Of a stretch of 64,000 nucleotides of DNA, positions 4,309 through 62,576 are shown piece after piece. Under the pieces are notes generated by a model. That model saw only the letters and a program-made list of their open reading frames with translations, did no database searches and was not told where the DNA came from. A program made the translations under genes and the position numbers. The stretch lies in the NCBI GenBank assembly GCA_050084985.1, contig JBITNC010000001.1, forward strand, positions 99,820,001-99,884,000. Direction: 5' to 3'. Position 1 is the stretch's first letter, and every line of letters starts with the position of its first letter. This stretch comes from Nageia nagi. Its lineage: Eukaryota > Plantae > Pinophyta.

Positions 4309-4309
4309 G

Positions 4310-4931: not shown

Positions 4932-7769
4932 ACAGGACACCTAGATTCAATCGCAGATTATAATTTCAACCAATTTCATACCATAGTACATACTACATTC
5001 CCAAGAGTAAGAGCAACTTAGCAAAGTTAGATCAGGAGGATCAACAAGCATTTGTAGATGAAGACAGCAATGATGATAGCCAGGATATATTCCAAATCCC
5101 ATGATTTTGATCCATACTTCAATGATACTGCACTTAACAAACTATATAACCAATTTTCTCAATTGTTCAATGGTGAAAGCAAAACAAGTACAACATATCC
5201 TAGTTCTCTTGATTCATCCAAAATGGAAATTTTTGATCTTTATAATGAAACTTACAATACTATAACAATTGTCTTTGGCAAAAAGTTTGTTCAATTGTGT
5301 GTTCTAATATTCTCAAGACACGCTCGCTAGGCATGCAATATCACAACTATCACATATGACCAAAAAATGTGTTCATCTCTATGGACAATAGTGCAATTCC
5401 TATGCTATACATACCACCTACTATGAATGGTAAGTATCATCCACTATTGCAACACACAAGGTATGTTTTTAAAAAATTTCTTTCATCTTTCACATTATCA
5501 ATCTACATAGTTTTCACTTGCATTTTCATTGTTAGAATAGTTGCATATTTGCATTTATCAAACACAACTTATATGTATTCCTAACATCTTACTTCATACA
5601 TATCTTGTTCAGCATTGAATAGTTCTTTGGTTATCTCAATAATCACTTGATTTCTCTCTTATGCATGTGTATCTTTATCCCTTGAACTTTCCATCTTTGA
5701 TTTCCCGTTTTGCTTGTTTTCATGAGAGTTCTCCATCTATTTGATTTTCATTGTTTTGCTTCTACTTTTGGCCGGCCAACTTTTCTCTTCGCCTTTGTAA
5801 TTTGCATTGATCTAATTATTCGTTTTGGTGAAACCAAAGTTTATTTCACAATCAAAGCAATTATCTTCAAAATTGAACAAGAACTCATTCAACTCACACT
5901 AACCCTTTTAACAAAGAACTTTTGGATGTGTGGATGAATTTTGCAGAAAATGAAAATAACATGTAAAAACTATTTGTTGATGGTTCCAAGTGCACCCATG
6001 GGACAGGAACAAGAATAGTACTCATTTCTCAAAATAATGGGGCAATCCCCACATCATACAAGTTGTCAACCATAGACATTAAGGAGATTCCAAGACCAAT
6101 GAACATCATGCACCTCAAAAGGTACTATGCTTAAACATTTATTTCCAATGCACTTTTTTGTAGTTTTTGCTCTTTCATGATAGATTAGACTGGTTTTTCA
6201 CATTTCTTCTCCATCTCAAAAAGTTGTTTTCCCATGCCCACACTTTTGGACATGTGCAATAGAAACACCCGCACTCTACGTTACACTATCCATAATGCCT
6301 GCACTTTAGGGACAACAATCCTAAAACACCAACATTCTAGACCTAAAGGCTTTTTCTATCAAAGATCAATTGCATTTCTGATCTTCTGAAATATCAATTT
6401 ATGAATTATAATTGCCTGAAATATCTTCTGAAATTATCATTTCCACAATTATCATTTCTTCAATTATCAATTCTAGAACTATTATTTCTACAATTATCAT
6501 TATGAAATAACTTCTGTAACTATCATCCCCAATGACTTCTATAATTATCAATTCTTGAACTAACATGTCTTCAATGTTCTGGAATGTTTTCATATCCATT
6601 ATAGGATCATCCCCAATAGAATAATCTTCAAAATTATCATTTTCAGAATCATCTCTAAATTTGCTACAACTAAGGTTTCACTCCAAAAACACAAGTTGTC
6701 CGTCAACAAACTTCCAATCCTCCATCATCCAAATAAGTTCTCTATCTCCTCTTGGCAACTGGCAAAATCCTAATTGCTAGATCTTTATATTCTATTTTCA
6801 TTCTACAGACATAATAAATGTATTTATTTTAATACATTGTTGTCTTTTTGTGTTTGTCCATCTTTATAAGATTACAAATTTATGCATGGGTTTGCAGATA
6901 TCAAAAATGCAATTCACGACAATACCAATGGTTAATGTGTTTGGATTTTTGAACATTATTTTGGGTTGATGCCTAAATATTCCATTTTTTCTTGCTGCCT
7001 TGGTTGACCAATTGAATCATTGTGGTGTTTCAGCACCCAACAAGGTTCAAAACCCAGCAGCAACTTACACAAATGATGTTGGCACTTTGTGATGACATCA
7101 TAGATGATGCTAAGGTATAATGGTGACAACTTATAAACCCTGTAATCCCTCATTGAATGAACAAAAAAAAAAAACTAGAGGTTGATGAACAAACAGCCAC
7201 CATTCTGAAGATACACATACCCTCGCAATTATATCCACAGCAGGCACACATTTGACATCCTAGAATAAGGGCAACATACACCCAAATATGGCAAAGATAC
7301 ATATCGTGTCTGCTGTATGGTCCTCCCACAGCACAGTTATATGGCTATGCACCCTACATGGAAAAAGCATTGTCAATTATGAAGAAGCAGAAGCATTGCT
7401 TAAAGGAAATTAAACCATGATCTAAAGAACTTTTGGGTGGTCTTATAGGTAAATGACCCTGCTACAACAGATGAACACAAAGATGCAGGCACCAACAGAC
7501 CAAATTACAAGTTGCACCTCTAAATCCAAAGCAAAATTATACATGCAATCCTCTAACAAGAACATTCGTGATTCCTTTTAAATGTCTACAGAAATGGATA
7601 TCTCGTATCATATAAAAGATGCTAGAAATGCCCTATATCTCAAAGGTCAGCTAGTAGAGAAAACTACCTCCCACGCTACTGACTAGAAACATTGAACTTA
7701 ACTATTAGAAGAACCAGGGAGTCCAGGAAGAGTCAGGGCCGATCAACTCAAACTGGGCGCCTCCAAGGG

Positions 7770-8436
7770 CTGGCACATGATTCAAAAAGATAAAATCTTG
7801 TCTTTTGAAATCATGCGACTAGGCCTAGAGGCCGTCCAAACCGGAAGAGAGGCTCGAAGACGGAATTTGGGTACTTGCAAACCCAACACATGCCTCCAGG
7901 AGACAAAATCTTGTCTTTTATGGGCATGCGCCAAGCACAAGAAGTAGGCTGGAGCGAAATGGAGCATGAAAAATCTAAGGCTAGTGCATGGTTTTGAAAG
8001 ACAACATCTTGTCTTTTTGAACCACGCAACTTGGCAAGGAGGACAAATTCAGCAAGTTCAGGAGTCGGGAAGTGAACTATGCGCCAAGCCTGGAAGGGCT
8101 TCCAATTCGAGCAAAAGTGAAAAATTTGACAAGTCACAGACTTAGAAACCCCAAGATCAGTTCAAGTACATCGAGGGGGGCTGGCACATGATCTCAAAAG
8201 ACAAGTTCTTGACTTTTTGAGGCATGCGCCAAGCCCAGGAAACCTCCAAGATCCGAAAAAGACAAAAATTTGGCAAAGGCATGAACACTTGAGCACCAAA
8301 TCACAAAAATTAGGCCATCTAGAGGTTGGAGCATGATCCAATCTTGCCTTTTTGAACCATGTGACCAAGCTGGCTGGGTAGGCCAGGCTAGCGCATGCCT
8401 CAAAAAGTCACAAACTTGACTTTTGAAATCATGCGC
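7770..8436. repeat. Array of ~6 imperfect ~40-45-bp palindromes (CATG-n-CAAAAAGACAA-n-TTGTCTTTTTG-n-CATGCG)
   Basis: Units near 7776, 7888, 7986, 8187, 8332 (partial) and 8394. Confidence 0.8.
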
Positions 8437-9660
8437 TCAAATTTTATCATTCATGCATCCTAGGGCTTGCGCAAGCACTTGGGAGACAAGCTGCTCCAAC
8501 GTGGGTGTGTTCTCTACCTGGAAACCCACGCACAATCCTTGAGAGGGTAATTCAGCTCCGGACTTCGCTAGGGACCTCGAGCGGTTGAAACAAGATTGCG
8601 TCATCTCCATTCGTGAGAGACAACAACCCCTTCCCCAAAGGGCCAAATTCTCGAGGAATGGTTTTGCAACCATCAGAGACACAAATTGGCAAAATGTTGA
8701 CCCTATGCAGATGAGGGAGAGCATTCGTGGCCTTCCTGTTGGTATGTTTTTCTTTCCTCGCTCAAAACATGCACAAGACTTGGAGGAAACAACATTACTT
8801 GTTCTCGCCTGAAAGGACTAGTTACCCCAAGCACTCACATGGAATATGGTCTTGATGGCTCAGGAGTCAGAGATGCATGTTGTTAACCGTATACAAGGGA
8901 AACTTGGATCACGATTCCTTTCCTTAATAAGGAAAGATTGCAAATATGAATGAAAGCAAAGAAAGATCACAAATGCAAGGAAAGAACACGGGGATAAATG
9001 CAAGGGAATGCGAGGAAAGGAAAGGATCTATGAGGACGTCACCAAGGATACAATGTCTCGGCAGGTCATCCTCAGATTCATTAAGGTCGATACACTCACT
9101 ATCAAGCCAGGCAGCAAATAGCAAATACACTTAAATCACTACCAAACGAGAGCAGGAAGCTGTAAGGTCTTTATGGAAGACTCAATGGAAAGAGTAAGGA
9201 TGGGGTGAGAGCACAAGTGTAGTAACCTAACCGAATGATATAAAGACAAGTTGTAAGCCTCAGAATATATCCACTTATGTGCAAACTATGCAAAGAAGGA
9301 TCAAACTCTTTCACAAAATAATCAATATGCAGTTCATAGAAAGAACCATTCAGATATGCATAATCCCACAAATGATGTTCCTCACAGTATAACTTTATGA
9401 TTTTATTCCTCTAAACAAAAACACATTCATATTGATTTTCAATAACAGAACATACATAGAACCCCTTATGCAGCAATCTTCTATGCAATGGAATGTGAAT
9501 CTTATGACATGCAAAGGCTCAAAATGATTGTACAAATGAACTCAATAGCCTCAATCTCAAGATGCAAGAACTCCTATATATGATGCTTTCATTATGTGCA
9601 AAGTTCCATGCAAAAATAGTACAAGATCATATCAAAAATTCCTCAAGCAAAATCCCATAT

Positions 9661-9705
9661 GTAAAATCCCTTTTCTAAATGGCCCAAATGAGGTATAAAT
9701 AGGCC
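9661..9705 (-). promoter_or_regulatory. Candidate main LTR promoter motif of element A, conserved in element B (~19898-19942)
   Basis: A (minus) CCTATTTATACCTCATTTGGGCCATTTAGAAAAGGGATTTTAC versus B (plus) CTATGTTTTAGCCCATTTGGGCTCATTTGTAAGGGGATTAGAC. Both lie a few hundred bp after the ORF end. Confidence 0.5.
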
Positions 9706-10107
9706 ATTAGAAGTGATGCCCTAAAGGCATCAAATCTGACATGGCATGCACACACAAAACACATACCGATACAAAATTAGATATCATCACGCAAGACTAT
9801 GTAAGTGGCATCTAAAGTTGACAAAATATAGATGCCACAGCTGCAATGCATCTACTCTACATCTATTCTATCCAACAGAATATCAGATATGCAATAAATA
9901 GACTGAAAAGGTCTGACATCAAAACCGGCAAGAGCAAAACCTCATCCTTGCACTGGTCAGAGTCATGAATGAATCTGACAAATATGATCTGGCAGGAGCA
10001 AAACCTCATCCCTACGCCAATCAAATCAAAGTAAAGTCTAACAAGCAACCTGTATGCATTAAACATAAAAAAAGGTATCACAGAGGAAGCCTGCGAGTGA
10101 ATCAGAT

Positions 10108-13100
10108 CTAGGCCATATCTGATTTGGTACAAGTGGAGTTCCACTCCTCGCTGGTGAGACCATAGGATTTGATGGTCTCCCCTAAGAACACCACGTTCTT
10201 CTGCATGCCCCTAGAGATCATACCAATAATACTACCATTCTGCCAAGAGTAATCCTCGATCTTCTTGATAGTGGCCTGCATCTGGTACCTGCAAATGACC
10301 ATCCGCCTCTCATGCACGATAGGAAGTCCTGCCTTCAACAAATTTAGATCCTCGACCTCAAGATGCTCCTGGATCAGATTTTGGGCCTCTACCAATACTG
10401 CTTCCTTCTTTCAAACATTATTATCCTCCCTTGGAATTTGAGCGGATAAAGATATTCGCTCATTTGCTCCTCCACCTCCTTTCGCAAGGGGATCTTTACT
10501 TTGAGGACAACATTGCACTTCTCAAGTGTGTGGTTCAACCAATCATGGTGATAGGTGAACTCATGGCTGTAGACCAATTTCTCGGGGTTATCGACGAAAG
10601 TGTGCTGCAGGTGGGAGGCATTGGGTAGGTAACTATCCAACTAGCCGAGGTGAGTAGTAATCTGAGCTTTGAGATCCCTGATCTCAACGCCCTCGGCTAG
10701 GAGCTTGTAAATGCGTGAAGACAATCTCTCGATGATCTCCACCATCTCATTCTTGAACTGCTCCTTCATGAGTTCCCACCCCTCATGGAAGGAAGTTTGT
10801 TTTTGCAAATGTAAGGGAGTGGTGCTGATTTTCTGGAACTCCTTTATAATTTTCCAACTGGCTGTGAGCTCCTTCTTTAATTTCTTCACTTCCTTTTTAG
10901 CTTCATAGCCTTCCTATTCCATGACTGCAACCTTCTAGGTAACAATGTGTTTCCTGGCCGTTAACCCCAGCTTGATTGGCATCTTGAAAGTTTCGATAAG
11001 ATAGTCCTCGGCCCTTTGAGGATGTTTCTCCTTGGAGTAGCAATGGCTGATAGAGATCTCCTTTCGAGAGGTGGAGATAAAAGTGTCCACCCTTCGAATT
11101 TTCTCCCCATCCGAAAGTTCTTCTTCCTCGTCCTCAGACCGCAAGTCCTGGTCTATATCTTCATCGTGAGCCGTACTCATGTTGAGGGCTCTAAGGCATG
11201 CATCTAGATCAAGATCTGGATGTTCGATCGCTAGTCGAGGGGGGAACCTTTGAACCAGCAACCTACCTTTATCAACTTTCTTGGCCTCCTTTGCTAGGGT
11301 AGTTGAAACTACTGCCATCTCCTTGTCCTGATGCTCTTCCTGCCTCCTCTTCTTCTTCTGTTCTTCTGTCTCTCCTTCGTCCTCTTCATCTCCTCCACTA
11401 CCGCCTAGAGATATGCTATTACTTCAAAGCTGGGGAGATTTATCATGACTCCTCTTAGTAGAGGTCTTACGCAAGGGTGACCTTTTCCTGGGTTCGGAAG
11501 GAGAGGATTTGGAGGCAGCCACCTCTCTAGCGCACTTCTGGCCAAGTATATGGACTTCATCATCATAAGTGCCTACGTCCACTATCTCATCTTCCGGGAT
11601 GGTTTCTACTTCCGTCTCATCAGGTGCTGAAGCACAAATGGCTATGTCTTCTAGCTGAGGTGAATGGGCAGCATTGGCATCACCTCCCTCTTCTTCTTCT
11701 CCCTGGCTCTCTGACTCTTCTGCAGAGTCTTCAACCCTACGGTCAGGGTTTCCATCAACTTCTTCATCAAAATAAGAGGAAGAGGTCTCAAAGCTGCTAG
11801 AACTTTGCTGTAAAGGGGGAACTTTCCCTCTTTGTCCAGGAGAATGGATCGATCTGGAAGGAATCGCTTCCGTGGGGGATTCACTCCCACATGTTGTGTT
11901 TATCACATCGTCCAGCACATCTAAAGGGAGAGCACAATAACCAGCATCTTTAAGGTCAACTTCCAACACACTACGCTTGTTGGGCTGCAACAAGCAAGGG
12001 CTTCTCTTTTGGTGAGGACGTTGTGTAGGCAAGAGATTTGATCTTCAAAGTGGCCTCCTTAGATCGAGGTTTGATAGTTCAAGGCCTCTGAGGAGGCTTT
12101 TCTGCCTGAAGGGGAGCCTTCTTTTTACTCAAATGAGCTGTGATGCGCGCAATTTCCCCTTCGTCCTGCACATTCCTATACCTTTCTTCAACCCCCAAAG
12201 ACTTGTGAGGAAATTGAATGGCCTGATGAAAAGTAGTCTCATAGAAACAGGCAATCATCCCCTCGGGATCATATTTCCTAGCAGTAGCTTCCCTTAAGAA
12301 GTTATACTATTGTAGCTCCTCCCACATATGTGTTGCCTCCACCCAAGTCTGGCACACATATCCAAATATAGAAATAGGCAAGTTGATGGTGGCGTTTTTC
12401 TTCTTCTAGACCTTCTCCTTCAGGAACAAGAGCTGCCTGGGAAACTCCATGAGGACCAACCTGTCGCTGACATACCTGGGCAGGAGCATGGGCTGCTCCT
12501 TCGAGCCATAAACTCTAATGTAGGTGAAGTCAGCGTCATGCAGAAAAAGGTCTACATGCACGCGAATAGCCTAGATAGCAACATCAGAAACCCTCTTCAC
12601 CACGGACTCTCCTTTGATATCCTTGTAGATATCATATTCCCAGGCGTCAGTTTTTTCATAAAAATACTCAAATTTATTTTGGCACCACCATTTCTGGTAT
12701 GCCCTCCACACAAGGATGTTCTTCTCTCCCAAGTATCTCTCATCAGCCAGCTCCTTGGATCTGACGTTGTCGTGCAATAACAAGTACACCAAGTAAGAGT
12801 TCATGTAAAATCTCTTTCATGAGCCAAACAAAGACAACTGGTAGCGCAGGGCATCAATAATAACCCCTGCCCACCGAATGAACCTCCCAAACTGATTGCA
12901 GCCATAAATCTTGTGAACTCCCTCCAGTACTTGGCATCACTCTCTTGACCGGTTACTCTTGATAATAAGGTGATCAATTTTGCCACCACTGGTAGAAATT
13001 CTTCTTTTCGCGCAGTGATCAACCTATGCCTCTAAAGGTTCTGAAATTCCTCAAGCAACCAAGGTCTAATATAGTCTCCAGGCCGAGAAGTGCAGTCATG

Positions 13101-13586
13101 AAACTCCTCCGAGTGGACCAATGTATAGTCATCCCCATAAAATTTCCAGCCAAAAGTTGCTTCAATACCAGCAGGGGTGAAGTCCATGATTACATTGCCC
13201 TCTGTATCTCGTAGCACTCTCTTGCTGAAATCACACTTCTTTGCCACTTCACTACACAAGTCAGGAAAAGGTACTGCAAACGGTATCATGGCGGCATTGA
13301 ACAAGTGGCATGTGTGGATAAGTTCCCCAAATAGGTCCTCCTTGCTGAGAGAGGTTGTAGAGGCCAAGGTCATAATTGGGTCCAAGTCACCCCAATCAGT
13401 GTAACCAACAAATATATATTTCCCCTTAAATTTGGCCTCCGAGAGCTCTGGTCTACTCTTCGATTGAAACTTTATCAAACTCTCCCTCAAAAATCAAGTC
13501 ATCTGGTTTTTAGTCACATGCCTCTCGAACAACTGGCTCTGGGTCTTCCTAGCCTTCAAAGAAGGTACTTTGGTGCTTGAAGCCAT
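10108..13586 (-). pseudogene. Degenerate copy A of the large accessory ORF (~1,160 codons with stops and frameshifts)
   Basis: ATG at 13586 (MASSTKVP...). Consecutive ORF-track fragments from 13032-13490 down to 10108-10395. Motifs FAVPFPDL, RVLRDTEGNVIMDF, NSYLVYLL, TYIRVYG...PMLLPRYVSDRLVLME, YDPEG. Acidic/basic middle and coiled-coil-like C-terminus. Confidence 0.85.
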
Positions 13587-13736
13587 GGAGGACACTATCG
13601 TACTCTTTCCTCAACTCCAGATGTCTGACAAGTCCAGGAGCACAATTATGAATGAGTGCAGAAGCACAGCCAGGAAAGCGTGCAACTGGGCCTAGGGACA
13701 GTCAATTTTCTGAACAACACTCTTCACTCGAAAGTT

Positions 13737-15210
13737 GGTCGCATGTTTTTGAATGAGTGCCTCAAGCATGCATAAAAAATGATGCGACTAGGTTCAAGGG
13801 TGAATTTGAAATGCCTTAGCCAAAAGAGGCTAATTGGATGTACAACGTCCCTGAATCTCCCTTCTATCTTGGTCGCATGTTCCGGAGTGGGTGCTTGATC
13901 ATGCATGAAAAATGATGCGACCATGCCTTGAAATGAGTGCAAAGTCTTCTAATGTTCCTTCCTTGGTCGAATGTTTTGGGATGGATGCTAAAGCATGTAT
14001 GGAAAATGATGCGACCAAGAAGAGGGATGAAAATGAGGTATGAAACGTTCAACGAGAAGGTGATATTTATAAGTTTGCTCCTGGACCAAGTGTTAGTCTC
14101 TTACCAGCTTGCTAAAAAGGTCCAATAGATAGTTTACAAACAAGGTCGCATGCATGGTGGGAGGTGCAAAAGGACTAGATAGGAATGGTGCAACTAGAAA
14201 GTGGGACCAGGGGACTTAGCCAATTTTCCAACAAACTTGAGCTCTTATCTCCCTTGTCGCATCCTTCTGGATGATTGCTCAAAGCACATGCTTGAATCCT
14301 TGCGCCTAGTTCTTGGCATGCTTCCCAAGGTCTAAATCTTTGAACAAAACTTCGAAAAATGTGTAGGATGTTCTTGGTCGCACATCCAAGAAGGGGTGCT
14401 TTTTTTTTTCTCCCATCTCCCCACACTCTGGCCCTCCCCAATTTTGCAAACTGAAATGAAGGAGGGTGACTTCCCTTTTATAGCCTTCAAGGTGGGACAC
14501 GTGTCACCATGGGATAGGCGCAGGATGAGGTCCAGTGCATGGGCTTCCACTTGTCACTAACGTCCAACACTTAGCTTATTTCCTTCTATTTTCCCTGGTC
14601 GCATGGTTTTGGATGAGTGCACAAGGACTCATCTCCATCCTTGCAACAAGCCTTGAAGCTTCGAAATTTGGCTAAGTGTTCTCCAAGCTGGTCGCACCCT
14701 TTGAGAGGAGTGCAAAAGGACTTGATGAAATGCATGCGACAGCCTTTGAGACTTCAAAAATATGCTAAGTGTGAAATTCCTAGTCGCATGGTTCCTGAGG
14801 AGTGCAAAAGGACTCACTCCAATGCATGCGACATCTTCAAAAAATGATGCTAAGTCTGAAACATTGGTCGCATCCTTTGAGAGGAGTGCAAACGGACTCA
14901 ACTAAATGCATGCAACATCAGAGGGGGGCCAAAAAAAATGCTAAGTATGAGATGAAACTCAGCCTAGTCGCACCTTCTCCAGAGCGTGCAAAAGGACTCC
15001 CTCAAAAACATGCGACAAGCTGAAAACATGCCCTTTTCCTACATTTTTCGACAACATGATGACAAAAAAGATGCAAGATGGGTGAAATGCAAAAAGGAAG
15101 GTCCTCAGAAGCCCTTCAAGCTGAATGATGTAAACGACAAAGACAAGGCTGCATGGTTGCATGGTTGAAAGGAGGTGCAAAAGCACTCTATGGAAAACAT
15201 GCGACAAGAG
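13737..15210. repeat. Array of ~9-10 inverted-repeat units GGTCGCAT-N~35-40-ATGCGAC (period ~85-100 bp in 14597-15030)
   Basis: Units begin at 13737, 13871, 13965, 14597, 14690, 14782, 14866, 14966 and 15155. Shared core GAGTGCAAAAGGACTC in the right-hand units. Confidence 0.85.
14475..14484 (-). promoter_or_regulatory. Candidate TATA box upstream of ORF A (a second candidate lies at 14064-14073)
   Basis: Minus strand GGCTATAAAAGGG and CTTATAAATAT, both within the repeat zone upstream of the ATG at 13586. Confidence 0.45.
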
Positions 15211-15881
15211 AAAAGTACATGAGAAATGATACTACTGCTGCGAAAATGCAAACTAGACATGTTTCCAACATCCTCCGAAAGGTATACATCTTTTTAGATA
15301 GATTTCATGCAATCTTTTCTTCCTTTATGTTTCCTGAGGGTCCTTTAAATGCGAAAAATTTTGGGGTGGTGTTGTGTAGGCACAACACTTCCCACCACTG
15401 ACTTGAAGCAGTACATCGTCTTCTTCTCCAGACTCTCCACTTGCACATTCGTACCATTCACAGCTCCATTCTCTAAATTGTGCATGGAAGTCGGTCACCA
15501 TTGGCAAAAAGGGGAGAGAGTCCTTAAAGACATCAAAGGAGACATCATCATGGACTTCAATATAGCGAGGCCAGGTCGCTAACGGACTACCAAGAGACCC
15601 CTAGGGCAGTCGTCGCTATCAAGAGTTGGATGTTGGAAGAACACCACAGGCTGAAAGGAAATGTGCTCATCAATGCTCCTCACTCCAACTTCTACCCCAC
15701 GATCGAGTTGATGATCCTTATGTTGTCTAGAGTTCTCGAGAAGGAAGATGCTTCGAAGTTTAGGAAGGAGTTCTTTGGTTTCATTCTTGAGATTGCCAGA
15801 GGGAGGAGAATCAGATGGAGCAAGCTGTTGAGCAACACCATAGTTGAACAATTGTCATCCATAGGTACCACAAGCAAATTC

Positions 15882-17291
15882 TGTGATGTCCCATTTGAGC
15901 CAATGAATAATTTATCATGGGCTCTTTGTATTCTAGGTGTTGTTCATGTTCATGTTGTATATGTGTAACTTAAGAGGGAGCTTATGGTCTGTGGACCCCA
16001 CTGTAAGCCCAGAAATGGGACATCTCCCTTTGAGTAGTGATGTTGTGTGATGTGATGGGTAATCCTGGATTGTGGGAATCCCAATGTAGTGTTGTATGTG
16101 TGGGTAATCCCGGATTGTGGGAATCCCTCTAACATCCCCTTTCAGAAGGTACAGTTCGCCAGAGGTCTTGGAGAGTTGATATGATTGGTTCTTTGGATAG
16201 GGCATCTCGTGGGAAATGTTTTGACAGGCCACACGACATGGTTTTATCAAGAAACGAAGGAGTTATGGTCTCTTGAAGTTCGCCAACCAGACCAATCTTC
16301 CACTTCTTGGCCGCCCATGAAAATCTATGAACAGCTCTATATTGACCCCTTGGAATGTGGCGTCCCACTCCTTGGGAGATGAGTATGTTGTGTGGTGTAT
16401 TCAATGCATTTAGCAATAGTAATGGGACCGCTTTTTTAAGTTGTAGTGCATGATTTCCAAGGCATTGCATTTCTAGCCAATGGATCTTGTGATTACGAGC
16501 ATCCCTAGGCAACATTGGAATAGAGAGGCATGCGCATGATTCCTAGGTGAGATCTATGAGAGACTATATTGAGGATGGAGCTCCATGATGAGGTTAGCAA
16601 TTATTATACATCTTTCTATACCAGAACCTCTTGGGCATTCAAGTATTGGCGATGCTGAGCAATATTCCTAGATAGTGTCTAGAGGAGTGACAAGGTTGGG
16701 AGCATAGCATTCTACGACTTAGGTGGGTCACCTAGTCCATCCAATGGTATTCCGAGGGCGAGCTTCCACATTCATTGGTCGCCAGGGTTTGAGGAGACTC
16801 CGTCGCAAGAGAGGATTCGGATGTTGAGGGGGTGAGTCGTTCCCATTTCATGTTCGGTTGGCTGAGGGTTTGGAACCCTAGATCTATGATTGTAATCTCC
16901 ATTGTGCTTCATCATCATACCATAATAAAATACATATCATTGTGCCTCTCATTCTTGTGTTTTTCCATTGTGTGCATGCGTTGTGATATACTGGTGTTGG
17001 AAGCTTGTTCTGGCTTCATATTGTTGTGTGTTCCCATTGTTGGTAATTATATGTTGTACATTGTTACTGGAAGGCATTCATGGGGTTTGCAGAGTGTTGG
17101 GGAAGCCCTAGGGGCTGACGTCAGCATTGGCTGGATCTCATTTGGCATTGTGTATTGTCCGGGAGCTCTAGGAGGCCCAATTGGATGTGTTGAGGTGTAT
17201 GTGTACCCTAGAGGGCAATCGTTGGGTGTTTGAAAGTTATAGAAGCCCTAGCTTGAGTTGTATTTGCTGAGGGTGAATTTAGAACATTACA
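15882..17291 (+). mobile_element. Solo LTR (1,410 bp), chromovirus-type family
   Basis: TGTGATGTCCC...GAACATTACA with TSD AATTC (15877-15881, 17292-17296). Shares GCCA.TGGATCTTGT.ATT...GCATCCCTAGGC with the solo LTR at 32628. Confidence 0.92.
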
Positions 17292-20200
17292 AATTCTACC
17301 TCAATTCATACCTGGTGTATATGTTGCTACAGGGCAGATATAGAACTACAACGCAAGGGGAGACGGCTTGGATAGAGAAAGGGACCTATTCCATTTGGAA
17401 GTGCTACCCCAAATGGAAGCTAGAAAGGAGATGGGATAGTTTCACAATGAAGAACAATGGATAGGAGTATGAAATATATAGGGAGCTCAAGGGAGAGACC
17501 ACAGTTGCCAGGATCTCCAATTCAGCCCAAGATGCTTTGAAAAAGCATGGGGACTTCTTCCTCCATCACCAACACTATTCCTACATTCGTACACATGGGT
17601 TAGTCGTGCAACCATATCAGTTGCCAAGGTTCGTGAGTAACAGACTACTGTTGATGGAGATAATGAGGTAGTTGGCCTTTCTACATGAGCATGTGTGGCA
17701 AAAGAAATCTACCACATCTAATTTGCCGATTATTGTGGAAGAATATCAGTGTAAGTCCTGGACAGATGTGGATACCATGAGGGAAGAAATGGCCAAATTT
17801 AGTTTCAAGAAGATGCCTACAGCAGACCATTATGACCCTGACCACAGGATGCAATTGTTCTTCATGAAGGAGAGGAGGAAACATTACAAGCATAAATCGC
17901 TTGCAGACGAATGCTAATGATCAGCAACACCATGTGGAAGCCACTATCAATGAGAGACTCTCGCAGCATAAGGGAAGAAAACTTCAAGAGTCTACCTCCA
18001 AGATCACACAGTTCCCTCCAATTGTTGAGACACCAGCTGGACAATATGCATCTATGCGTGGTAAGAACCCAGTTGAGCAAGTTGTACAAGTACGGATCAC
18101 CATGGACGAGCATGACGCAAGAGAGCTCGAACGTGTGGCCACAGACAAGGTGGTTAGGTGTGTAAGAAACAAAAATCAGGATTCGTCTCCGCCATCCAAA
18201 CCACCTAGAGCCACAACAGCAAGGCCTTCACCCATTGTTCCACCATCTAGATCTTCATCTTCCAGTCACTTGTACAGACCGGTTGAGTCAAGAGGAAAGG
18301 GAGGTTGGAGAATCAAAAGACGAACAGGAAGTGAATGCAGCCTAGGATGACGAGATCCCAAATGCACAGCAACATGACTCCTTAAAGATATTGAAAGTGA
18401 TCCATAAAACAGCAGCATCAGAGTCGTCTACAGAGAAGGGTAAGGAGCCAATGTTGGAGACAATACAGAAGAGAGCTCGGTTGAAGAGAACTCCGCAGTC
18501 AAGAACTATAGAAGCTTCAGGTGAGCACGACAAAGAAGGAGAGAGACCCTCTAAGAGAGGAAAGAAGAATACCGTTACCATATAGGAGGCAGTTGTGGAG
18601 ACTTACCAACCATCACCCACAAATGAGTGGGGTGTCAATATGGTGGAATGTCTTGATGTGTTTAACATGAATGTCGGGGAAGAGTTTGAGGCGAAAGAGA
18701 AGAATGATCAGAATGGAGAGAGCTCCACTCGCCCAAGGAAGACCCAAACATCTGTGCATCTAGCTGATAATGCCATACATATCAAGACCATAATAGCTAA
18801 TAAGGAACCCACAACGTTTTGAAGACCTTAGATAGATCAACTAGATCATCAACACAGTTCCGATTGGTTTCGTTGGTCGGAAACATGCAATCATCTCCAA
18901 CACTAAGGCCATCATCAAGGTATGATGAAGGACAAAGAAATCAAAAGCCTCAAGAAAGAGTTAGCCACACAGAGGAAGTTGACTAGGGAATTAGAATCGG
19001 CTAAGGTGCCCACAGAGGATCTCCAAAAAATGAAACCACTCAAGGAGGGCATGATTGCAGTTAAGCAAAGGCATATAGATGAGGTCTTGGTAACAGTACA
19101 GTAGTTTACTAGGGCATTAGAGAGGGTAGCATTCGAGGAACAAAAGCTCAAAGACATCATGGTGGAGAGAGCCAATCTTCTCAGGATTTTAGATTCCAGA
19201 AGGCCCATGATCATGCAATTCGAGATGACATAGAATTGAAGGCCAAAGGATGTGAAGTTTTGTGAGGAGTATTGGTTTTATTTGGGAGTGGTTAATCAAA
19301 TAGCCACCTGATTCCAAGAAGTGCAGAAGGACATTCAGAAGCTCAACGATAAGGCAAACACTTGTCTTGAGCAAATGGAGTTCCAAGTCAGGTTCATTGA
19401 TGATGACACCACTATCCGAGATAGAGACATTGTAGTGGAAGAAGTGAGACACTTCCTGCACAGCCTGATCTTGACCAAGGCCATCAACACCTTTCAAACT
19501 GGCTATCACTTGGAGCACTTACTCAAAGCCCATGCTTGGAAAAAGGATATGCTGAAGATAGCGTTGTGTTGTGAGGAATGGACCAAAGCTGTAAAAGATG
19601 TTACATGGATTGGAGCTTACAGCCAAATTCTTAGATGATGACTTCAAGGGACGTGATGAGGCATTGGTCCCACCAACCGCTTAGTCACATTATTTGTTTT
19701 TATTATATTTAATAATTATTTTGAAGAAGCTTTGTTTTATTTGTTAATAAATTCCCAAGTTTGTGATGGATGAGGATTTGCTCCCACAAACTTGGATAAT
19801 GTCTTGTAATGCTAGGTGGCATATTTCTATTGGACCATACTTTATTTCTTAAAAATTGCAATTAGGGTTAGGGCAATGCTTAGGATTGCCAAGAAAACTA
19901 TGTTTTAGCCCATTTGGGCTCATTTGTAAGGGGATTAGACATTTTTTGCAAATTGGACTACTTACACAATACTTTCAAACTCGCAAGTTTCCCTATTTTG
20001 TAATTGTGATATAATTTCAAGAAATTGAAGTGAGTAATGTTTTCATTTGGAACTATGGATGTGAATGTGTGTTACATCTTTATGCTTTCTTGAATGTTTG
20101 GAACATTTTGTAAATCTTATAAAGGTGGACAAAACAATGCCTACAAATCTTTTTGAAACATTACAAGTAGTGTATGGTTGTGATGTTCCATAGTTTGCAC

Positions 20201-20817
20201 ATTGGACTAGTGTCTTTTGAGATGACTTGCATATGCCATTTAATCTAGGAACTTCATTCCGTGTGTGAGTTTTACCCACGTCATACCTTTCTTTCCATCG
20301 TCTTAGCGCCGAGCTCCCCTTGTTAGGATACTCGTGTTGTTGCCTTTCAAGTCGGATTAGGAATGTGTGAAACCTAGGCCAAACCTGTGCAAGTCTAGTC
20401 TTTGAAACCCACACTAGTCAGTGAGAATATTTCCCTAGAGCTGAACTCATATATCACCGTCTTCTCACAACCCTTTTTTATTCTTTTTTATTTCTTGTGC
20501 GCGGCTTTCACAACAAACCTTTTCTTTTCTTCTTTTTCTTGAGAAACAACCATTCCTTGATCGGGACCCTTCGAGTCCTTGGCTAACAAACATTATTTGA
20601 GTTGGTAACAACTTCAAACATCTCCACCATATCACTTGAGTGAACCCTTGCAGCCTTCACTTTCAAACTTTTGAGGTAAACAGTCCTCATAACGGGTAGG
20701 GGTTACACCCTACCTCTCAAGTGTTGGAGTCTTTCCACAGGCATTGTGATACCATTTGCCAATCAGCAAGTGTAGGAAAGAAAAAGCCCCCAACAGAACC
20801 CTAAGCAAATGCCTGTC

Positions 20818-35453: not shown

Positions 35454-35545
35454 GTAAGCGGGTAGAATAGCCAGATCCGAAGGGCACACTGTTGTAGTAG
35501 AAAAAGAGGGGTGAAAGGAAAATTTCTCTGAAAGGGAGAACAACT

Positions 35546-41252: not shown

Positions 41253-41494
41253 TGTTTGCAGAGGAGGAGCTGCTGAGGAAGCAGGAGGGAGAGAGAAGAT
41301 ATCGTTCGGACCATTCAACTCAATATCTAAAGGAATTATCCGTTTACATGTGGGGTTAATGGTTTTGTTGAAACCACCTCATACGCTGGTCCGTTGTTGG
41401 TCAGGGTTCGAACACGGGACATTTACCAATAGAAACAAGTATCTTTAGTATTTTTCTGTGTTTTTTTTATGATGCTATATCATCGTATGAAGGT

Positions 41495-41982: not shown

Positions 41983-42015
<33 letters not shown>
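41495..42015. repeat. ~273-bp near-identical tandem duplication just upstream of ALB3, ending in (AT)n
   Basis: TCTTCTATTGTTTTCATAGAGAAAGATG... starts at 41495 and at 41768. Confidence 0.9.
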
Positions 42016-43370
42016 TTCAGTTTTGCATAGGTGTGCATGTATGTTGATCTTTATCTAGATGTTATATTTAAGCATGGTTTAAATTAAACGATTAAAGGTC
42101 TACGTTCATTCTTTTTAGGTATTTAATGATCTTATGCTCATGTACAATTGAAGATTACCCATTATACCTCTGATAATGATTGATCATTAATGAGAACCAT
42201 ATAAGAAGATAAGTCACATGCTAATAATGAAACCTAATAGATTCTACTATATTAAATCACTTTTGGTAACCATCTAAAGTGAGTTGGTAACGCTTAATTT
42301 TTCTCATTTTAAGTGATATCTTTATCACTTTTAATATCAACTTGAATATGCAAGGTATCACTTTTAGTTTTGCATATATGTGCATGCATGTTGATCTTCA
42401 TCCAAATGTTGTACTTGAGTGTGATCTAAATTAAACAATATTTTTTAGGAATTTAATGATCTCATGCTTATATACTTACAATTCAATGAAGACCACCCAT
42501 TATACTCATGATAATAGTTAAGCATTAGCGAGAATCAAATAAGAAGATAAGTCATCTACTAAGGATAAATCGTAATACATTATCCCAAATTGAATCACTT
42601 TCAACATCTACATCAACAAAAATAAGAGCCTTAGACACTTTTTATGCTTGTATTTTATTTTTCTTATTTTGTGTGATATTTTTGTCATTTTTAATATGTA
42701 CCATCTTAGATATGTGAGGTATCCCTTTAAGCTTTGCATATTAATCTTCATCCAAATGTTATACTTGAGCATGTTCCAAATTAAATGATCAAGGGTCTAC
42801 GTCCATTATTTTTAGGCATTTATTGATCTCATGCTTATGTACTTCCAATTCAATAAAGATTACCTACTATATCCATGACAATAGTTGAGCATTAATGAGA
42901 ATTAAATAAGAAGACAAATCACATACTAGCCATAAAACCTAATACATTATAGAAAATTGAATAACTTTTGGTATCCACCTAATAGTGAGTTGGTAGCACT
43001 TTATTTTTCTCATTTTAAGTGATATCTTTATCATTTTTAATATACCAACCCAAATATGCAAGGTATCCCTTTCAATTTTGCATAGATGTTTCATGCATGT
43101 TGATCTTTGTCTAGATGTTGAATTTGAGCATGCTCTAAATTAAATGATCAAGGGCCTATGCCAATTCTTTTTAGGAATATGATGATCTCATGCTTATGTA
43201 CTTACAATTCAATGAAGTCTACCCATTATACATGTGATAGCAGTTAAGCATTAGTGAGAATTGAAACTAAGAAAATACATCATCTATTAAGGATAAAAAC
43301 CTAATAAATTCTACCATATTGAATTACTTTGTGCATTTGTGTCAACAAAAATAAGAGCCTTGTGCACTTT
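42016..43370. repeat. Degenerate ~350-bp tandem repeat x4 with A/B alternation (~710-bp higher-order unit)
   Basis: TTTGCATA...GATCTT..TC.A.ATGTT at ~42021, 42368, 42733, 43077. Units 1 and 3 share AGTGAGTTGGTA. Units 2 and 4 share TCAACAAAAATAAGAGCCTT. Confidence 0.8.
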
Positions 43371-55855: not shown

Positions 55856-57486
55856 TTACCATGCCAATATATCCTCTCGATTGTAAAGGAGGTAGGGATT
55901 TGTGAATACATCAAGTTCTCCATTATCTTGATGTATGGGTCCATCATTTATGACAATATTATCATCCATTATGATTACCTCTTTATCAATGAAGTCTTGA
56001 ATAATATGCCTTAAAGTCTTGCAATTTCTTTTTAGATGTCTAGGTACCTTGTGATAATTGCAAAATTCCTCATATCTAAAATTCTTAGGCACACCATTGG
56101 GAAATTTAAGCTCAATAATAGGTGGAAGCTCAATAATGTCTTCTTTAATTAATACATTAAGAATATTATCAACAATATCAGTTAATGGTGTAACCTTTCT
56201 TTTAGGTTTTTTGTTAGATTTTTGCTTTTGGTCAAATTATTCACTTCAATTTTATTATTATTTTTAGGATTATTAACCTTATTTTCACACATTGGAACCT
56301 TGTTATCACACATAGCATACAAATTTTTAATACATGCCTCTTTTTTGAATAAAACATCCATTATTTCACCTAATGTGATATTGTGGTTAGAGATAGCAAA
56401 TAGTTTATATATAGGCAACAAAGCATTTGAAAAAGTATCTTTCAAATGTTGTTTAGGTATAGCAATATTATTAGTAGTTAATTTCCATACTTTCATGAAA
56501 TCAAATACAAATTGATTAGGTAGTTGCTTAATTTTTCTCAAATCCTTAAATTGAACTTTTCTAGCAATATTATATTTGAACTACTGTAAAAATTGATGAA
56601 TCAAATCCTCATATCTATCAATGCTCTTTTCAGGAAGGAGAAAGTACCTTTTTAATGCACCATCTTTCAAACTATGCAAAAATAATTTAGCAAGAAAATC
56701 TCTATCATGCATATATTCCATAGCTTCTTCCTGAAATTTTCTAACATGCATCTTAGGATCTTGCAGACCATCAAAATTTGTGAACTTAATACTCTTCTTC
56801 CCAGTAAGTACTTTGGATATGATTCTATTAGTTAAAGGTCTTTTTAAACAAAACAAGAAGTCATGTTCATCATTTCCAACCAATTCTTCTTCTAGCTTTT
56901 TTATTTTCTCCTCAGTTGAAGTATCTTTTAGGGGTGGTGGAGGGGTTTGAGGTGGAACATTTGCATTTCTAATTTTATTTTATTTAAACACAAAAAATGG
57001 ACCTATTCTATTCACCCTTTCATGTTTTATCTTATCAAGCAAGTTTACTAGGAATTCTATTTGCTTCTCATAAGGTTCTAAATGATAATTTACAATATCT
57101 TGAACTTCATGGAGGATCCTAGCTTTGATATTGTATTCTTATAATGACCAATCATGATGTTTCTTATAAGTATCATTAATAAGATTTGTAATTTGTTATT
57201 GAAATTTAGAATCAGAATCATCATCTTGGATAATATTCTTACCTTTAGCAAACTTACCTCTTTCGAATTGGTCAAGTTTGAGAATTAGGTCTTCATAATC
57301 TTTGTCATCATCATTATCATCCACACCACCATCCTCAACATTTTCCTCGCTTGAGGGTTTTATTATAGATTCATCCATTGTAGGAGGATCTTCCTATTCG
57401 ATCTCATTCATGTTGCTAGCAGCGTGTTCACAAATTTGAACACCATCAATTTCATCCTTTGTGGGTGTTGATTGAGATTGTGTAAT
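55856..57486 (-). pseudogene. gag remnant
   Basis: IKFTNFDGLQDPKMHVRKF...AKLFLHSLKDGALKRYF...YEDLIHQF, and knuckle-like FCNYHKVPRHLKRNCKTLRHIIQDFID. Confidence 0.82.
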
Positions 57487-57636
57487 ATGTGCGCCTGGAA
57501 CAATCTTAACCAAAGTAGTTCACGAACAGACTGTAGGACGCAGCCTGATCTCCGGAGAAGGCCGGTTCCTTATCCATTGGGCAGAGAAAAAGTAACAGGA
57601 AAGAGATAAAAAGAGTAGGGAGCGAGAGATTTAAGC

Positions 57637-57708
57637 AAAAGGATAGGGTAACAAGAAAGGAAGTAAAAGGATAGGGTAACAAGAAAGGAAGTAAAAGGAT
57701 AGGGTAAC
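57637..57708. repeat. 28-bp tandem repeat (~2.6 copies)
   Basis: AAAAGGATAGGGTAACAAGAAAGGAAGT repeated. Confidence 0.85.
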
Positions 57709-58249
57709 GAGAGAGAAAGCAAAGGGGTAGATCACTAGTTCAGCGCGGGCTTTCGCAGTGTGCGAAACCTTGGCCTGAATCTAGTGTCGCAGCCACAGAA
57801 CAAGTCCTCACTCTCTGAATAGCTCCCCAGCTTCTACTCTACCATGTAGCAGACACAGTTATACTAGCAACCCGCAACTATTACTCAGGAAACAAGCTAA
57901 GCTGCCACAATGTAACCAAATTAAGAATAACAATTACGAGTGCTAGACAAGAAAGGTCAAGATGGTTTCATAGTACCGGACTGAAGCTACAGGTCTTCGA
58001 GAACAAATGAAAAGGGCAATACTAGGCTTCCGACCCTAGTTTCTCTTTATTTTCATATATTTATACTGTGTTAATAACAGTTACAAAATTACAGAATAGA
58101 AACGTTTACAAAACGGCCGCAAGATTCTGGCCTTCTTGAACTGATATCACCTACATATGACACTTGGCCGGCTGTTACAAAATTGGGCAGATCGCCGACG
58201 ATTCGATTCCCTGATGATTGTACTCAGGCATCTTGCAGACTTACTCTCT

Positions 58250-58760
58250 TTCGGGATTTCTTAATTCTATGGCTCAGGCTCTTCAATCTTTCTTTGCGGG
58301 CCTATTTTCCTCCGAGACTCGGTTTCATTCACCAATATTAATCTTGTTTCTTTCCCCTTCGCCTGACGTCAGCCTTGAATCTCCGGACTTCTTCATTCAC
58401 TGGCTCCGGACACTAAATTACTCCTTGATGATGTCATCCATTCTGGGCTCCGGTTTGCTTTATGAATGCAAACTTCATATTTCCTTGTGACGTCACCTTT
58501 GAATCTCTGGAATTTCCCGCTCGCTGGTTCCGGATACTAAATTTCTCTTTGCTGATGTCATCTGTTCCGGGCTCCGGTTCTTATTCAAAATGTGAACGTC
58601 ATTTCGCCTGTGACGTCATTTTTCTACCCTCCGGAATATTTTCCTTTATGGCTCCGGATACTAAGTCGCTACCTGTCGACGTCATCTCCTCCGGACTCCG
58701 GTTCCATTCAAAATGTGAACGTTGTTTCCCCGTGACGTCATTATTTCATTTCTCCGGAAT
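58250..58760. repeat. ~123-bp tandem repeat (~4 copies) rich in TGACGTCA and TCCGG motifs
   Basis: TGACGTCA at 58364, 58488, 58611 and 58733. Variants TGATGTCA/CGACGTCA at 58429, 58553 and 58677. Confidence 0.88.
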
Positions 58761-59093
58761 GCTTTGTTTGCTGGAGAACTTATGCTGACTTTATCTTTTC
58801 CGGAACTTGGTTTTCACCCCAAAAAATAATCATCTTATCCTCCGCACGTCTCCACTTTATTCCGGAAAACTTTACTCTGACTCCGGGCTGCTTTATCTGC
58901 TCCGGAAAAAACTCCCGGAGATCTTCGAATGAATCCGTAGGGGCAGGTAGAGTACACCGTGGCTTTACTTCAAGGATTTATTATGGAGGAATCTACATTA
59001 TGGTGACTTCTGGGGGGAAAATTTCGCCTTTATCAAGGAGGAATTTAGAACCCAAACCTTTATTTCCATGAATAAAAAAAAATGGACTTGCCT

Positions 59094-62000
59094 TCAGTTC
59101 TGTAGACTCAGGATTTGCTGGACTTTACTCCAGTCTGCTGGGATCCCGGAAAAATCTTTTAGCCTCGCATGAGCTAAGGCTGTATGGTTCAACACTTCGT
59201 AAGATACATTGGCATGTTTCCTCAATAATTGCTGTATGCGAAGTCCGCCGTCAGCCAAAGAATCAAAGAATTTTACGAAATTGGTTTCGTCAAAGGAAAC
59301 CAGGAGCGTATCGACATCATCAGTACTTTGAATCCTATTCTGTAGACTATTCAAAAACTCAGCCTCCGAGACAAGCGAGCCGTTGCTTTTCCATAACTCT
59401 GGGATTCCGGACGCATTCAACCCTTGTATCTCTGATTTCAGATTTTCCATTTCTTGCGTCCGACGCAGGACATTACTCCGGATCTCCTGACAAACCCATT
59501 TACCCCTCCCTGGGTAATCAATCGCCGACATGAGCTCCACTCGGTCACCAATGTTATATGACTGCAATTTCTCATTCGAGAGGCTGTTTAGTCTTTTATT
59601 TGCCTGCTTAGCCTGTTCTGAAATGGGGTTCAGAATACTTTCACATCTTGTGACCTCAGCTTCGAGCCTTTTGAGTTCTGATAAACATGACTCCACATAG
59701 TCCCTTAGATGAATTAAGTCTTTGACTTCCTGCATCCTCAGCTCCCAAAATTTTTCTTTTGTATTTAACAGAAAAGATTTGTCTACTTTATTTGCATTCA
59801 GCTTTGCTTGGAGTTCCACCATGTTAGCGTTCAGACTGCTGATCTCCGCTACTCTGGCAGTTATTTCCGCATCTCTTTGAGCGATGATAGCATCCTTTTG
59901 GCTCAGCTTATCCGCTGTAGGAGCCATCGCTAAACTAGTCTTCAAAATTGATATATTATTCTCCGCAGCCTTCAGTTTTATTTTATTCGTGTCTAATTGC
60001 TGCTTCATGGCTTCATGGGCCTTTTGCAGCTTATGGTATTTGACCTCTAACTTGGTAAGTTCTGATATGTTGAGATCGACAGCTGTTTGTAGGAGCTCGT
60101 TCTTATCACTCCTAGATATGCTGCGGGTGTCAATCTTCACCCGGGTGTTCATGGATGACAGATCACTTAGCCCTTCTTGTGGATCCTGGACAATAGCCAT
60201 TTCCAGCACCTTATGCTTCGGATCCATGGATGTCCGGAACCTTACCGGATTTTCCGGAAGTGGAAGTTTTTTCGCTTGCTTCTGCATCCATGACTCCTGG
60301 CCTTGTTTCATCTGCTGATACTGCTGCATGATGCCATCCACGGATACCTGCTGCCCTGATATCATGATGAAGGGGGATCTGGCGCTCAACTCCTGAGATG
60401 AAGCGGCTACGATCTGTTGAGCTGGTGTCACGGGACTAGCTTGGCTGGCCCCTGGGTTACTGCTTCCGGAAAGATCCACTGCAGGAAGTGTTGAGATAGA
60501 GAGAGGAGCGGACGATGGAGGTGGGGAGGGTTGGGGTGATGAAGGTATTGTAATGATGCTTGCGAGGGGAGGAATTTGTAGAATGGGTGTAGGAAGAGGG
60601 GGGCTCTGCCGTTGGGTGGACGGTGGTGAAATGAGAGATGGTATGTGTGCAGCTGGAATAGCTGCTGGAATTGGGGGAAGGGTGATGGAAACAGAAATGG
60701 GAACAGTATGAGCCGGCAGAGCAGAAGAAAGAGAAAGAGGGGAAGAAGGAGTAGGAAGCGTACCTGAGGGCGTCGGGCTCCTCCTTCTCCTTTTAGGTGG
60801 TGGCGGTAGTGATGCCTTCTCCATCTGTGTTTTCCTTTTGGCCATGTAGACTCTTTCTGGCCTCTTAGTCGCCGTCTCCGTGGAAATCTCCCTGATTTCC
60901 TCCTCATGTTGCTTTTCCCGAGCTGGTGCTTGAGACATAGCATGCCCCTGCTCTTCACTGTCATCAGAATCTTCACCCGTAGGAACTTCTGTGGGATGTT
61001 CCAATTCCCACATCTCCTCAAATTTGTCGTCTAGATCAGATTCTAGAGGAGTGTTCCTATTCCCAGACTCAATCCTGTACTGGGTAAAGGCAGCTATTTT
61101 TTCTTCACTCCATCTCTGATCTCTTAGTGTTTTCAAAGCCTTTTTTGAGATGGAGTCGGTCTTTAGGTCAAAAACGGCTTTCCTGTTATAGAAATTCAGC
61201 CATGGCGGTAACAAGTCCTGGGTGATTACGGCGGTGGGCATCACCTTGTCTTCCTGCTCCGGATTTCGCCACTTAAGCAGCTCTGGTTTATTTTCGGCTC
61301 TAAAAGCCGGGGAATTGGGTTGGCTTCTCAGCTTCTTGCCAAAAATATCCTCTGGATCATATAGACAATATGAGCTCAATTCCTTCAATTTTAGTTTCAA
61401 TAATTTGCCCCTTAAATAGTCGCTTGCTCCCCGGCTTTGGAGCACCAGGTCATGCACTTTGTGGGGGAGAGCATAGACTCCTCTCTTTTTGGCGGCAGCT
61501 CCGTATTTGGAGTCAATATAATCCATCTGTCTGGCGTATTCCACACTGAAAATCCAATCAGTCACATGAACTGGTAGCAAAAACGGGGCCCCGGAAAACC
61601 CATACAGTCTTATGAAAGTCCCATTTTCCGCAAAAAACCAGTCCCCGACCTCTCCATGGGGCATGCGGAGGTATAGTTTGGAGGCTGTTGATAACCTCAG
61701 AACTGTGGGGGTTAATAGACCCATTGCTGGAACTAAAAATTTCTCCACAAAGGAGTAGTAATTTGCCGAAGACCTCACCTCCTCGGTCCACTTGTCCACT
61801 GGCTTCTGAGACCCATCTTCATTACTCTGGACCAGGGTTAGATTTTTGAAAACCTCGGCATTTTGATGAATCATCATCCAGACAATGTATGATGTATAAG
61901 CGAAATGAAATCCATCGCCAATCCTTGCTAGCTGTTCCGATATTCCATCCGAAAGGGCACTAGACCAGTCATACATTGCGGGAGAAACTGGGTGAGAAAT

Positions 62001-62576
62001 CCGATAAGCTATAACTAACCTTGAAGGTGAGACATATCTATCTGTTTCCTCCCCTGCTGCTATGGCTAGCATGGACAATAGTAATTGCAGATGTGCAGAA
62101 AAGTTTGAGAGTGGGAGTTCAGAACTGGGGAACTCTCTAAACTTTGCGGAACCGGCTGTATTTTTATTTAGCCAAGCAGTGATATTTGCTCTTAGGTTGG
62201 CGCTAGGTGTGATATACCAATCAATTTGCATGAGGGGAACCATAGGAGGGGGTGGACTGAAAGCCTCCGCTATTGCAACAGAATCCAAATTTAGGATAGT
62301 TCTACCTTGCAAGTCTCTGACTCTCCTAGTTGCAGGATCGAATGCCCCTCTTATGATTTCTACCAACTCGGGAGCAGGAAAGCATCTATGAGGGATGAAA
62401 TGCATGAGACCCGAACCCATTGGGGAATGAGCTATATGATTGAAGCTGAAGTTTGGGCACTTACCTTCCGCAGTGCCCTTGGGGTTCTTGTTCGGGGCTG
62501 TAATCTCCGTATCCCACAATAACTCCATGGAATCTGATACCTTCTTTGCCGTCTTCGCCACTGATCCTGAGCTCAT
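59094..62576 (-). CDS. Intact 1,160-aa retroelement accessory protein of unknown function (copy C)
   Basis: Uninterrupted ORF. First ATG is 62576 (the track start 62612 is TTG). Conserved N-terminal ~430-aa domain homologous to copies A and B, acidic tract, NLS-like PKRRRR, Pro/Ser-rich linker, long heptad-like C-terminus. No RT, RH, INT or PR motifs. Confidence 0.88.
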   Translation of the reverse strand: MSSGSVAKTAKKVSDSMELLWDTEITAPNKNPKGTAEGKCPNFSFNHIAHSPMGSGLMHFIPHRCFPAPELVEIIRGAFDPATRRVRDLQGRTILNLDSVAIAEAFSPPPPMVPLMQIDWYITPSANLRANITAWLNKNTAGSAKFREFPSSELPLSNFSAHLQLLLSMLAIAAGEETDRYVSPSRLVIAYRISHPVSPAMYDWSSALSDGISEQLARIGDGFHFAYTSYIVWMMIHQNAEVFKNLTLVQSNEDGSQKPVDKWTEEVRSSANYYSFVEKFLVPAMGLLTPTVLRLSTASKLYLRMPHGEVGDWFFAENGTFIRLYGFSGAPFLLPVHVTDWIFSVEYARQMDYIDSKYGAAAKKRGVYALPHKVHDLVLQSRGASDYLRGKLLKLKLKELSSYCLYDPEDIFGKKLRSQPNSPAFRAENKPELLKWRNPEQEDKVMPTAVITQDLLPPWLNFYNRKAVFDLKTDSISKKALKTLRDQRWSEEKIAAFTQYRIESGNRNTPLESDLDDKFEEMWELEHPTEVPTGEDSDDSEEQGHAMSQAPAREKQHEEEIREISTETATKRPERVYMAKRKTQMEKASLPPPPKRRRRSPTPSGTLPTPSSPLSLSSALPAHTVPISVSITLPPIPAAIPAAHIPSLISPPSTQRQSPPLPTPILQIPPLASIITIPSSPQPSPPPSSAPLSISTLPAVDLSGSSNPGASQASPVTPAQQIVAASSQELSARSPFIMISGQQVSVDGIMQQYQQMKQGQESWMQKQAKKLPLPENPVRFRTSMDPKHKVLEMAIVQDPQEGLSDLSSMNTRVKIDTRSISRSDKNELLQTAVDLNISELTKLEVKYHKLQKAHEAMKQQLDTNKIKLKAAENNISILKTSLAMAPTADKLSQKDAIIAQRDAEITARVAEISSLNANMVELQAKLNANKVDKSFLLNTKEKFWELRMQEVKDLIHLRDYVESCLSELKRLEAEVTRCESILNPISEQAKQANKRLNSLSNEKLQSYNIGDRVELMSAIDYPGRGKWVCQEIRSNVLRRTQEMENLKSEIQGLNASGIPELWKSNGSLVSEAEFLNSLQNRIQSTDDVDTLLVSFDETNFVKFFDSLADGGLRIQQLLRKHANVSYEVLNHTALAHARLKDFSGIPADWSKVQQILSLQN

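Follow-up and report, generated by a model that had tools for sequence, protein, structure and literature searches.

A gymnosperm retrotransposon protein family with a predicted VANC21/PMD-type fold and candidate target motifs next to its genes in Nageia nagi

What is the protein that is encoded three times within 64,000 nucleotides of the Nageia nagi genome (assembly GCA_050084985.1, contig JBITNC010000001.1, positions 99,820,001 to 99,884,000; the whole of this stretch is called the window), and what could it do for the elements that carry it? An earlier note, made from the sequence alone, had described one family with ordered motifs, and a motif scan recovers these motifs in the same order at all three loci, with the GDFF and DLF segments traced through tblastn alignments and reading frames. 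Open reading frame (ORF) C is intact and runs on the minus strand from an ATG at 62576 to a stop at 59094, encoding 1,160 residues. ORF A, also on the minus strand (13493 to 10108), is decayed by stops and frameshifts and has about 1,130 codons, so that the length of about 1,160 codons once given for both holds for C and not for A. ORF B is a decayed plus-strand frame of about 1,000 codons in three pieces: an N-terminal piece (8543-8736) with a likeness, by eye, to the N-termini of relatives P0143 and P0148, a second (15393-15881) defined by frames and tblastn, and a third (17292-19638) with the conserved subdomain, linker, and tail. Our tentative answer, which we rate just short of an even chance, is that these are conifer retrotransposon accessory proteins with a predicted VANC21/PMD-type fold that bind DNA motifs, with anti-silencing as their most likely job.

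The likeness among the three copies is beyond chance, and judged by sequence they are one protein family. Within the conserved segment, A and B are 39% identical over 207 residues (pairwise E 2e-51), while C shares 21% identity with A over 204 residues (E 2e-11) and with B over 184 residues (E 8e-8). Proteins retrieved with C alone lead back to the other two copies, as 43 of 151 also match A (tblastn against the window, best E 8e-18) and 20 of 151 also match B (best E 1e-15). The purifying selection proposed earlier is borne out by codon comparison with a relative at locus L018, where pS is 0.78 and dN 0.31 over 96 codons, and by the 24 variants within ORF C that appear in the best-supported 40 rows of a contig comparison: 11 of them are synonymous, where synonymous sites make up 22.5%, which gives a rough ratio near 0.35.

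The clue to function comes from the N-terminal half of the protein. Residues 45-295 of C (61692..62444, minus strand) form a folded domain with predicted likeness to the DNA-binding domain of VANC21, the DUF1985 protein of VANDAL21 (PDB 9LNK); the structural match to this solved domain, over an aligned range of 37-290, places the two in one fold group, and a VANC21/PMD-type fold is predicted for the family. The two proteins share 9% identity, the family has no DUF1985 match, and it possesses an additional conserved subdomain of about 155 residues beyond the aligned range. This subdomain (C residues about 290-445; 61242..61709, minus strand) is the most conserved part of the protein in the conservation table, with the pattern GDW…IRxYG…P..LP…LE..RQ…YDP, and its structure is predicted with pLDDT mostly 82-96. 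Among 119 members less than 45% identical to C, conserved positions include F225, S229, W263, G311-D312-W313, R323-x-Y325-G326, P331, L334-P335, R349-Q350, and Y406-D407-P408, with E346 conserved at 93%. The linker (residues 530-740; 60357..60989, minus strand) is acidic/basic, as the earlier note had it, only at residues 531-600; residues 601-740 are instead Pro/Ser-rich (44% P+S). A basic KRK…KRRRR stretch at residues 580-599 is a possible nuclear localization signal, and on this stretch a nuclear location may be proposed. The tail (residues 741-1160; 59097..60356, minus strand) is charged, Pro-poor, and probably helical or coiled-coil, with no significant Pfam match. The coiled-coil-like character claimed for all three tails is plausible but tentative, with two windows flagged by a strict heptad filter in C and none in A or B.

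Is this a known family? A phmmer search of 1.84 billion representatives returned 147 proteins at E<=0.001, mostly fragments; fragments were also all that domain-length and profile searches returned, and a word-index search with full-length limits gave no match. Two of ten relatives that were checked have names, both "hypothetical" (Cryptomeria japonica GLJ04972.1 and Taxus chinensis KAH9296670.1). Relative P0104 (1,010 residues, 26% identity in the domain) has the identical layout of domain, linker, and helical tail, and no Pfam match. Pfam assigns no family at all to ORF C, hence no PMD, DUF1985, Transposase_28/32, or SMC, and of the 45 weak families for 145 members, the 25 listed include no PMD (PF10536; 0 of 145 at E<=10), DUF1985 (PF09331), Transposase_28/32, or ATHILA. 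By those families' own tests, therefore, the protein is outside Pfam PMD, DUF1985, and Transposase_28/32 at the level of sequence. Profile-profile comparison of the family with PMD gave probabilities of 0.07-0.18% in 10 comparisons, with shallow PMD profiles (Neff 2-3), and an equally low value came from setting PMD against Transposase_32; HHalign of the family against one Transposase_32 protein gave 1.9% or less, and profile comparison detected no sequence likeness to MAIN/MAIL1/MAIL2. A PDB sequence search with family query A1 found no match, which is uninformative because PMD and Transposase_32 control proteins also drew none. The ESM Atlas gave no usable match for C residues 40-450 or for relative P0148, Foldseek found none in the PDB or in the viral fold library BFVD, and four queries against a viral contig collection found none. 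Of the resemblances once suggested, that to Transposase_28/32 or SMC fails for want of any Pfam match, while that to PMD survives at the fold level, through VANC21, which is reported to resemble PMD, and not at the sequence level. In predicted fold and element anatomy the family follows VANC/PMD, and we regard it as an unannotated new branch of that known kind, made up of probably DNA-binding accessory proteins of gymnosperm retrotransposons. As a separate observation, a bacterial genome bin (G001, loci L001-L017) contains 16 PMD, 1 Transposase_32, and 3 Transposase_28 matches, likely as plant contamination; its PMD proteins score up to 213 bits against PF10536, query A1 has no match there, and DUF1985 was not found in it either.

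What carries the gene? Upstream of ORF C, on the same strand, lies a gag (63113..64000; Retrotrans_gag E 7.7e-7, passing the cut-off) that ends 537 bp before it, with no pol between, and the junctions are tiled by contigs of other sequencing runs (X9, 62753-63297; X1, 62437-62775). The L018 relative, 57% identical, lies in sense and starts 380 bp downstream of an integrase frame, and the spacer between the two is partly homologous to that of element C. Because gag precedes C without pol while the L018 relative follows integrase, C is most likely a pol-less derivative retaining gag and the extra ORF. Both are ORFs of at least 250 codons outside gag-pol in a long terminal repeat (LTR) element, as extra ORFs of the OTA superclade are, and the proposal of a transposable element (TE)-encoded extra ORF in an Athila/Tat-type Ty3 element stands. 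The 3′ part of the element C LTR (57466..58100, minus strand) has a TATA-like box at 58065 and ends in …TCAACA at 57466; past this end, copies in two runs (X1 and X9 loose ends) run on into TGGCACGCCCG, which we take to be a tRNA-Arg-type primer-binding site. Such sites are dominant in TatIII and Ogre (REXdb; Neumann 2019, PMC6317226). An alternative placing of ORF C inside its LTR was rejected, as the spacer has no polypurine tract or target duplication and the L018 ORF is internal. The element C family is multicopy, since 6,828 contigs of run X2 map onto its 8.5 kb; many of the runs containing element C are air metagenomes, which points to a wind-pollinated gymnosperm as host, and none of the runs listed is marked as RNA, X9 being a possible RNA run. 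Beside these elements, the C-type ORF of L018 has, close to its start, an inserted Copia element (2255-10012) that carries RVT_2 and LTRs some 2.2 kb long and 89.6% identical; insertions near the ORF start are seen in 2 of the 4 family copies observed in context. Element C abuts the first of two mutually related old gag remnants (55859-57465, minus; 1652-2017, plus).

The earlier note had counted three diverged elements; there are indeed three copies, but A is nested inside B, near B's start. The unit holding ORF A (8737..15387, minus strand; 6,651 bp) has TGTTG…CAACA ends and no terminal direct repeats, is flanked by a CTTCC duplication (8732-8736 and 15388-15392), and is inserted in ORF B; contigs of X2, X6, and X9 join 8731/8737 to 15388/15394, leaving out 6,656 bp. 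In minus-strand order, it comprises a motif array, a TATA-like box (14482), a further array, ORF A, and a tail of about 1.4 kb, for which the simplest and fairly probable reading is a solo LTR containing the gene. A second insertion in ORF B (15882..17291; 1,410 bp, TG…CA ends, AATTC duplication), also absent from the X2, X6, and X9 contigs, resembles 32696-35059 and is likely an unrelated solo LTR. Given the gag, the L018 integrase, the TG…CA ends, and the 5-bp duplications, the carriers are LTR retrotransposons and not VANDAL/Mu-like transposons. A reading of A and B as a divergent pair in a single element was rejected on the contig joints and the nested insertion, and a candidate boundary for the B unit (7693-20588, AACAT duplication) was dropped, as 200 randomly drawn window pairs yield such a duplication in 10.5% of cases.

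Close to each of the three copies lie non-coding tandem repeats in which a short motif has built up, as is the case for VANC targets, and the three arrays are candidate targets. Upstream of ORF A, repeats of about 90 bp (13735..15206) lie on either side of the TATA-like box; ATGCGAC occurs there (13500-15330) 14 times exactly and 21 times with one mismatch against 0.09 expected, mostly as inverted pairs about 40 bp apart, and, when eight array units are compared, the ends of the motif rank with the better-conserved columns. Upstream of ORF B, behind whose array its start sits, a related motif, CATGCG(A/C)C, forms an array at 7760..8440, the ATGCGAC-related motif appearing 5 times in 7700-8460. 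Downstream of ORF C, a 124-bp tandem array (58400..58747; 2.8 copies) contains TGACGTCA and TCCGGA palindromes, which in the C 3′ region occur 4 times against 0.016 expected and 11 times against 0.46 expected, respectively, although tandem copies inflate all these motif counts. The CpG observed/expected ratio, a proxy for loss of DNA methylation, gives a mixed picture: it is 1.13 in the C array region (58360-58950) against 0.54 in ORF C and 0.39 in the window, but the arrays of A and B reach only 0.42-0.49.

How, then, might the protein work? The short motifs to which VANCs bind lie in non-coding tandem repeats, and these proteins demethylate members of their own families (Hosaka 2017, PMC5735166), while PMD-C resembles the VANC DUF1985 and acts against Polycomb by way of motifs, with direct binding unproven (Pelissier, bioRxiv 2024.09.27.615353). 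By analogy with the predicted fold, the family's protein would likely bind the short repeated motifs adjoining its own gene; the basic linker could provide nuclear import and the helical tail oligomerization, and DNA methylation or Polycomb marks may be lost locally, so that the element family would be kept transcribed against host silencing. Divergence of the protein would go along with divergence of the motif: an ATGCG(A/C)C-type motif is common to A and B, which are 39% identical, and C (21%) has another. ORF A, with a TATA box and a motif array of its own, travels in a solo-LTR-like unit.

Several known systems resemble this arrangement, each with differences. VANC21 resides in a Mu-like DNA transposon of dicots, whereas the family resides in gymnosperm LTR retrotransposons; VANC is described as dicot-specific, structurally homologous to MAIN, and predicted to form coiled-coil oligomers (PMC13547354). 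PMD-A is encoded by retrotransposons (Pelissier, bioRxiv 2024.09.27.615353), and PMD-A ORFs of Tat/Ogre are likewise extra ORFs of non-chromovirus Ty3 elements, with a similar domain and coiled-coil layout; by eye, the motif spacing compares as a hairpin FDPATR vs WRPET and YDW…I..QL vs YNWGG…LY, and the PF10536 result above sets the family apart. In gymnosperms, the TatIII PMD ORF is antisense, behind aRH, and lineage II is described as having no extra ORFs (Ustyantsev 2015, PMC4408406), whereas the family's ORF is sense, behind integrase (L018, one relative) or gag (C), and ORF A, unlike the antisense TatIII ORF, lies inside a solo-LTR-like unit. In REXdb, a sense 3′ ORF occurs in 26% of TatII and an antisense ORF in 18% of TatIII, and a CDD match in only 21.4% of extra-ORF proteins (Neumann 2019, PMC6317226). 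MAIN/MAIL1/MAIL2 (PMD-C), with a reported VANC-like structure and short, partly palindromic promoter motifs used against Polycomb silencing, are host genes with no sequence similarity detected. The ORFs of Athila (PF03078/PF20167, Transposase_32) and Retand (PF04195, Transposase_28) are extra ORFs as well, located 3′ in elements of the OTA superclade and reportedly predicted nuclear, in Retand with tandem arrays close by (Vicient 2025, PMC11963269; PMC11728184; PMC6317226), but belong to Pfam families that the family does not match.

A fold does not prove a function, and the same VANC/PMD-type domain could do a different job, as an LTR-promoter transcription factor that spares silencing marks, a chromatin tether for integration, or an RNA-binding factor of the particle. 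The A and B arrays show no CpG excess, and TGACGTCA is presumably a host bZIP-type site, so the C array may serve host factors. MAIL1/MAIN, moreover, were initially described as silencing factors, and direct PMD-DNA binding is reported as unproven. Against this, the one match with a solved structure is to a protein that counters silencing and is bound to its motif there, the motif type follows protein divergence (A/B vs C), and the ORF is retained in C after pol loss, a point against a partnership with integrase in cis; we consider a different job doubtful, though it carries real weight.

That the VANC21 match reflects a chance likeness of helical folds, the domain having an unrelated undescribed fold, is decidedly unlikely in our estimate. 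An env-like membrane protein for cell-to-cell spread would suit the L018 ORF, which sits in sense directly behind pol, where env-like ORFs sit, but C has no transmembrane-grade segment (best 19-residue Kyte-Doolittle mean 1.43) and does have a basic NLS-like stretch, and the viral fold library gave no match, making this reading highly improbable.

If the proteins are motif-binding anti-silencers, the consequences extend further. TE-encoded sequence-specific anti-silencers described so far in the literature surveyed belong to Mu-like DNA transposons; no VANC-like gymnosperm-retrotransposon ORF or conifer-LTR ORF was found there, and subscription papers and REXdb supplements may include them. 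The family goes unseen by Pfam, yet connects an ORF of gymnosperm retrotransposons with the fold of VANC21, as predicted, and supplies candidate target motifs; the fold link lowers the novelty of the family, and together with the motif arrays gives a specific mechanism absent from the earlier note. The role of plant LTR-retrotransposon extra ORFs is an open question (PMC6317226, PMC4408406), that of epigenetically active ones has been raised (PMC12844716), and whether the host or the retrotransposon PMD/VANC came first was left open (Ikeda 2017, PMC5418596), a question on which this finding bears. In its boldest form, unlikely though not strongly so, the proposal is that conifer LTR retrotransposons have their own VANC-type sequence-specific anti-silencing system, pre-dating or independent of dicot VANDALs, with gene, promoter, and target motifs within the LTR in some families. 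In that case, the anti-silencer would come in trans even from solo LTRs and from copies that lack pol, which could help explain continued retrotransposon accumulation in giant conifer genomes. Annotation based on gag-pol would also overlook an ORF that lies within a solo-LTR-like unit.

Elsewhere in the window, a decayed Ty3 element (32020-39233, plus strand; LTRs 91% identical) has reverse transcriptase, RNase H, integrase, and SH3 pieces, and its 5′ part is what the 1,410-bp insertion in ORF B resembles. A 173-residue frame (40860-41378, minus strand) with no Pfam match may be a host-gene exon among TEs; its middle shows a likeness to plastid insertases of the ALB3/YidC type, in their N-terminal part. 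It is followed at 41495-43371 by a 273-bp duplication and then, in AT-rich DNA, by arrayed units of about 355 bp.
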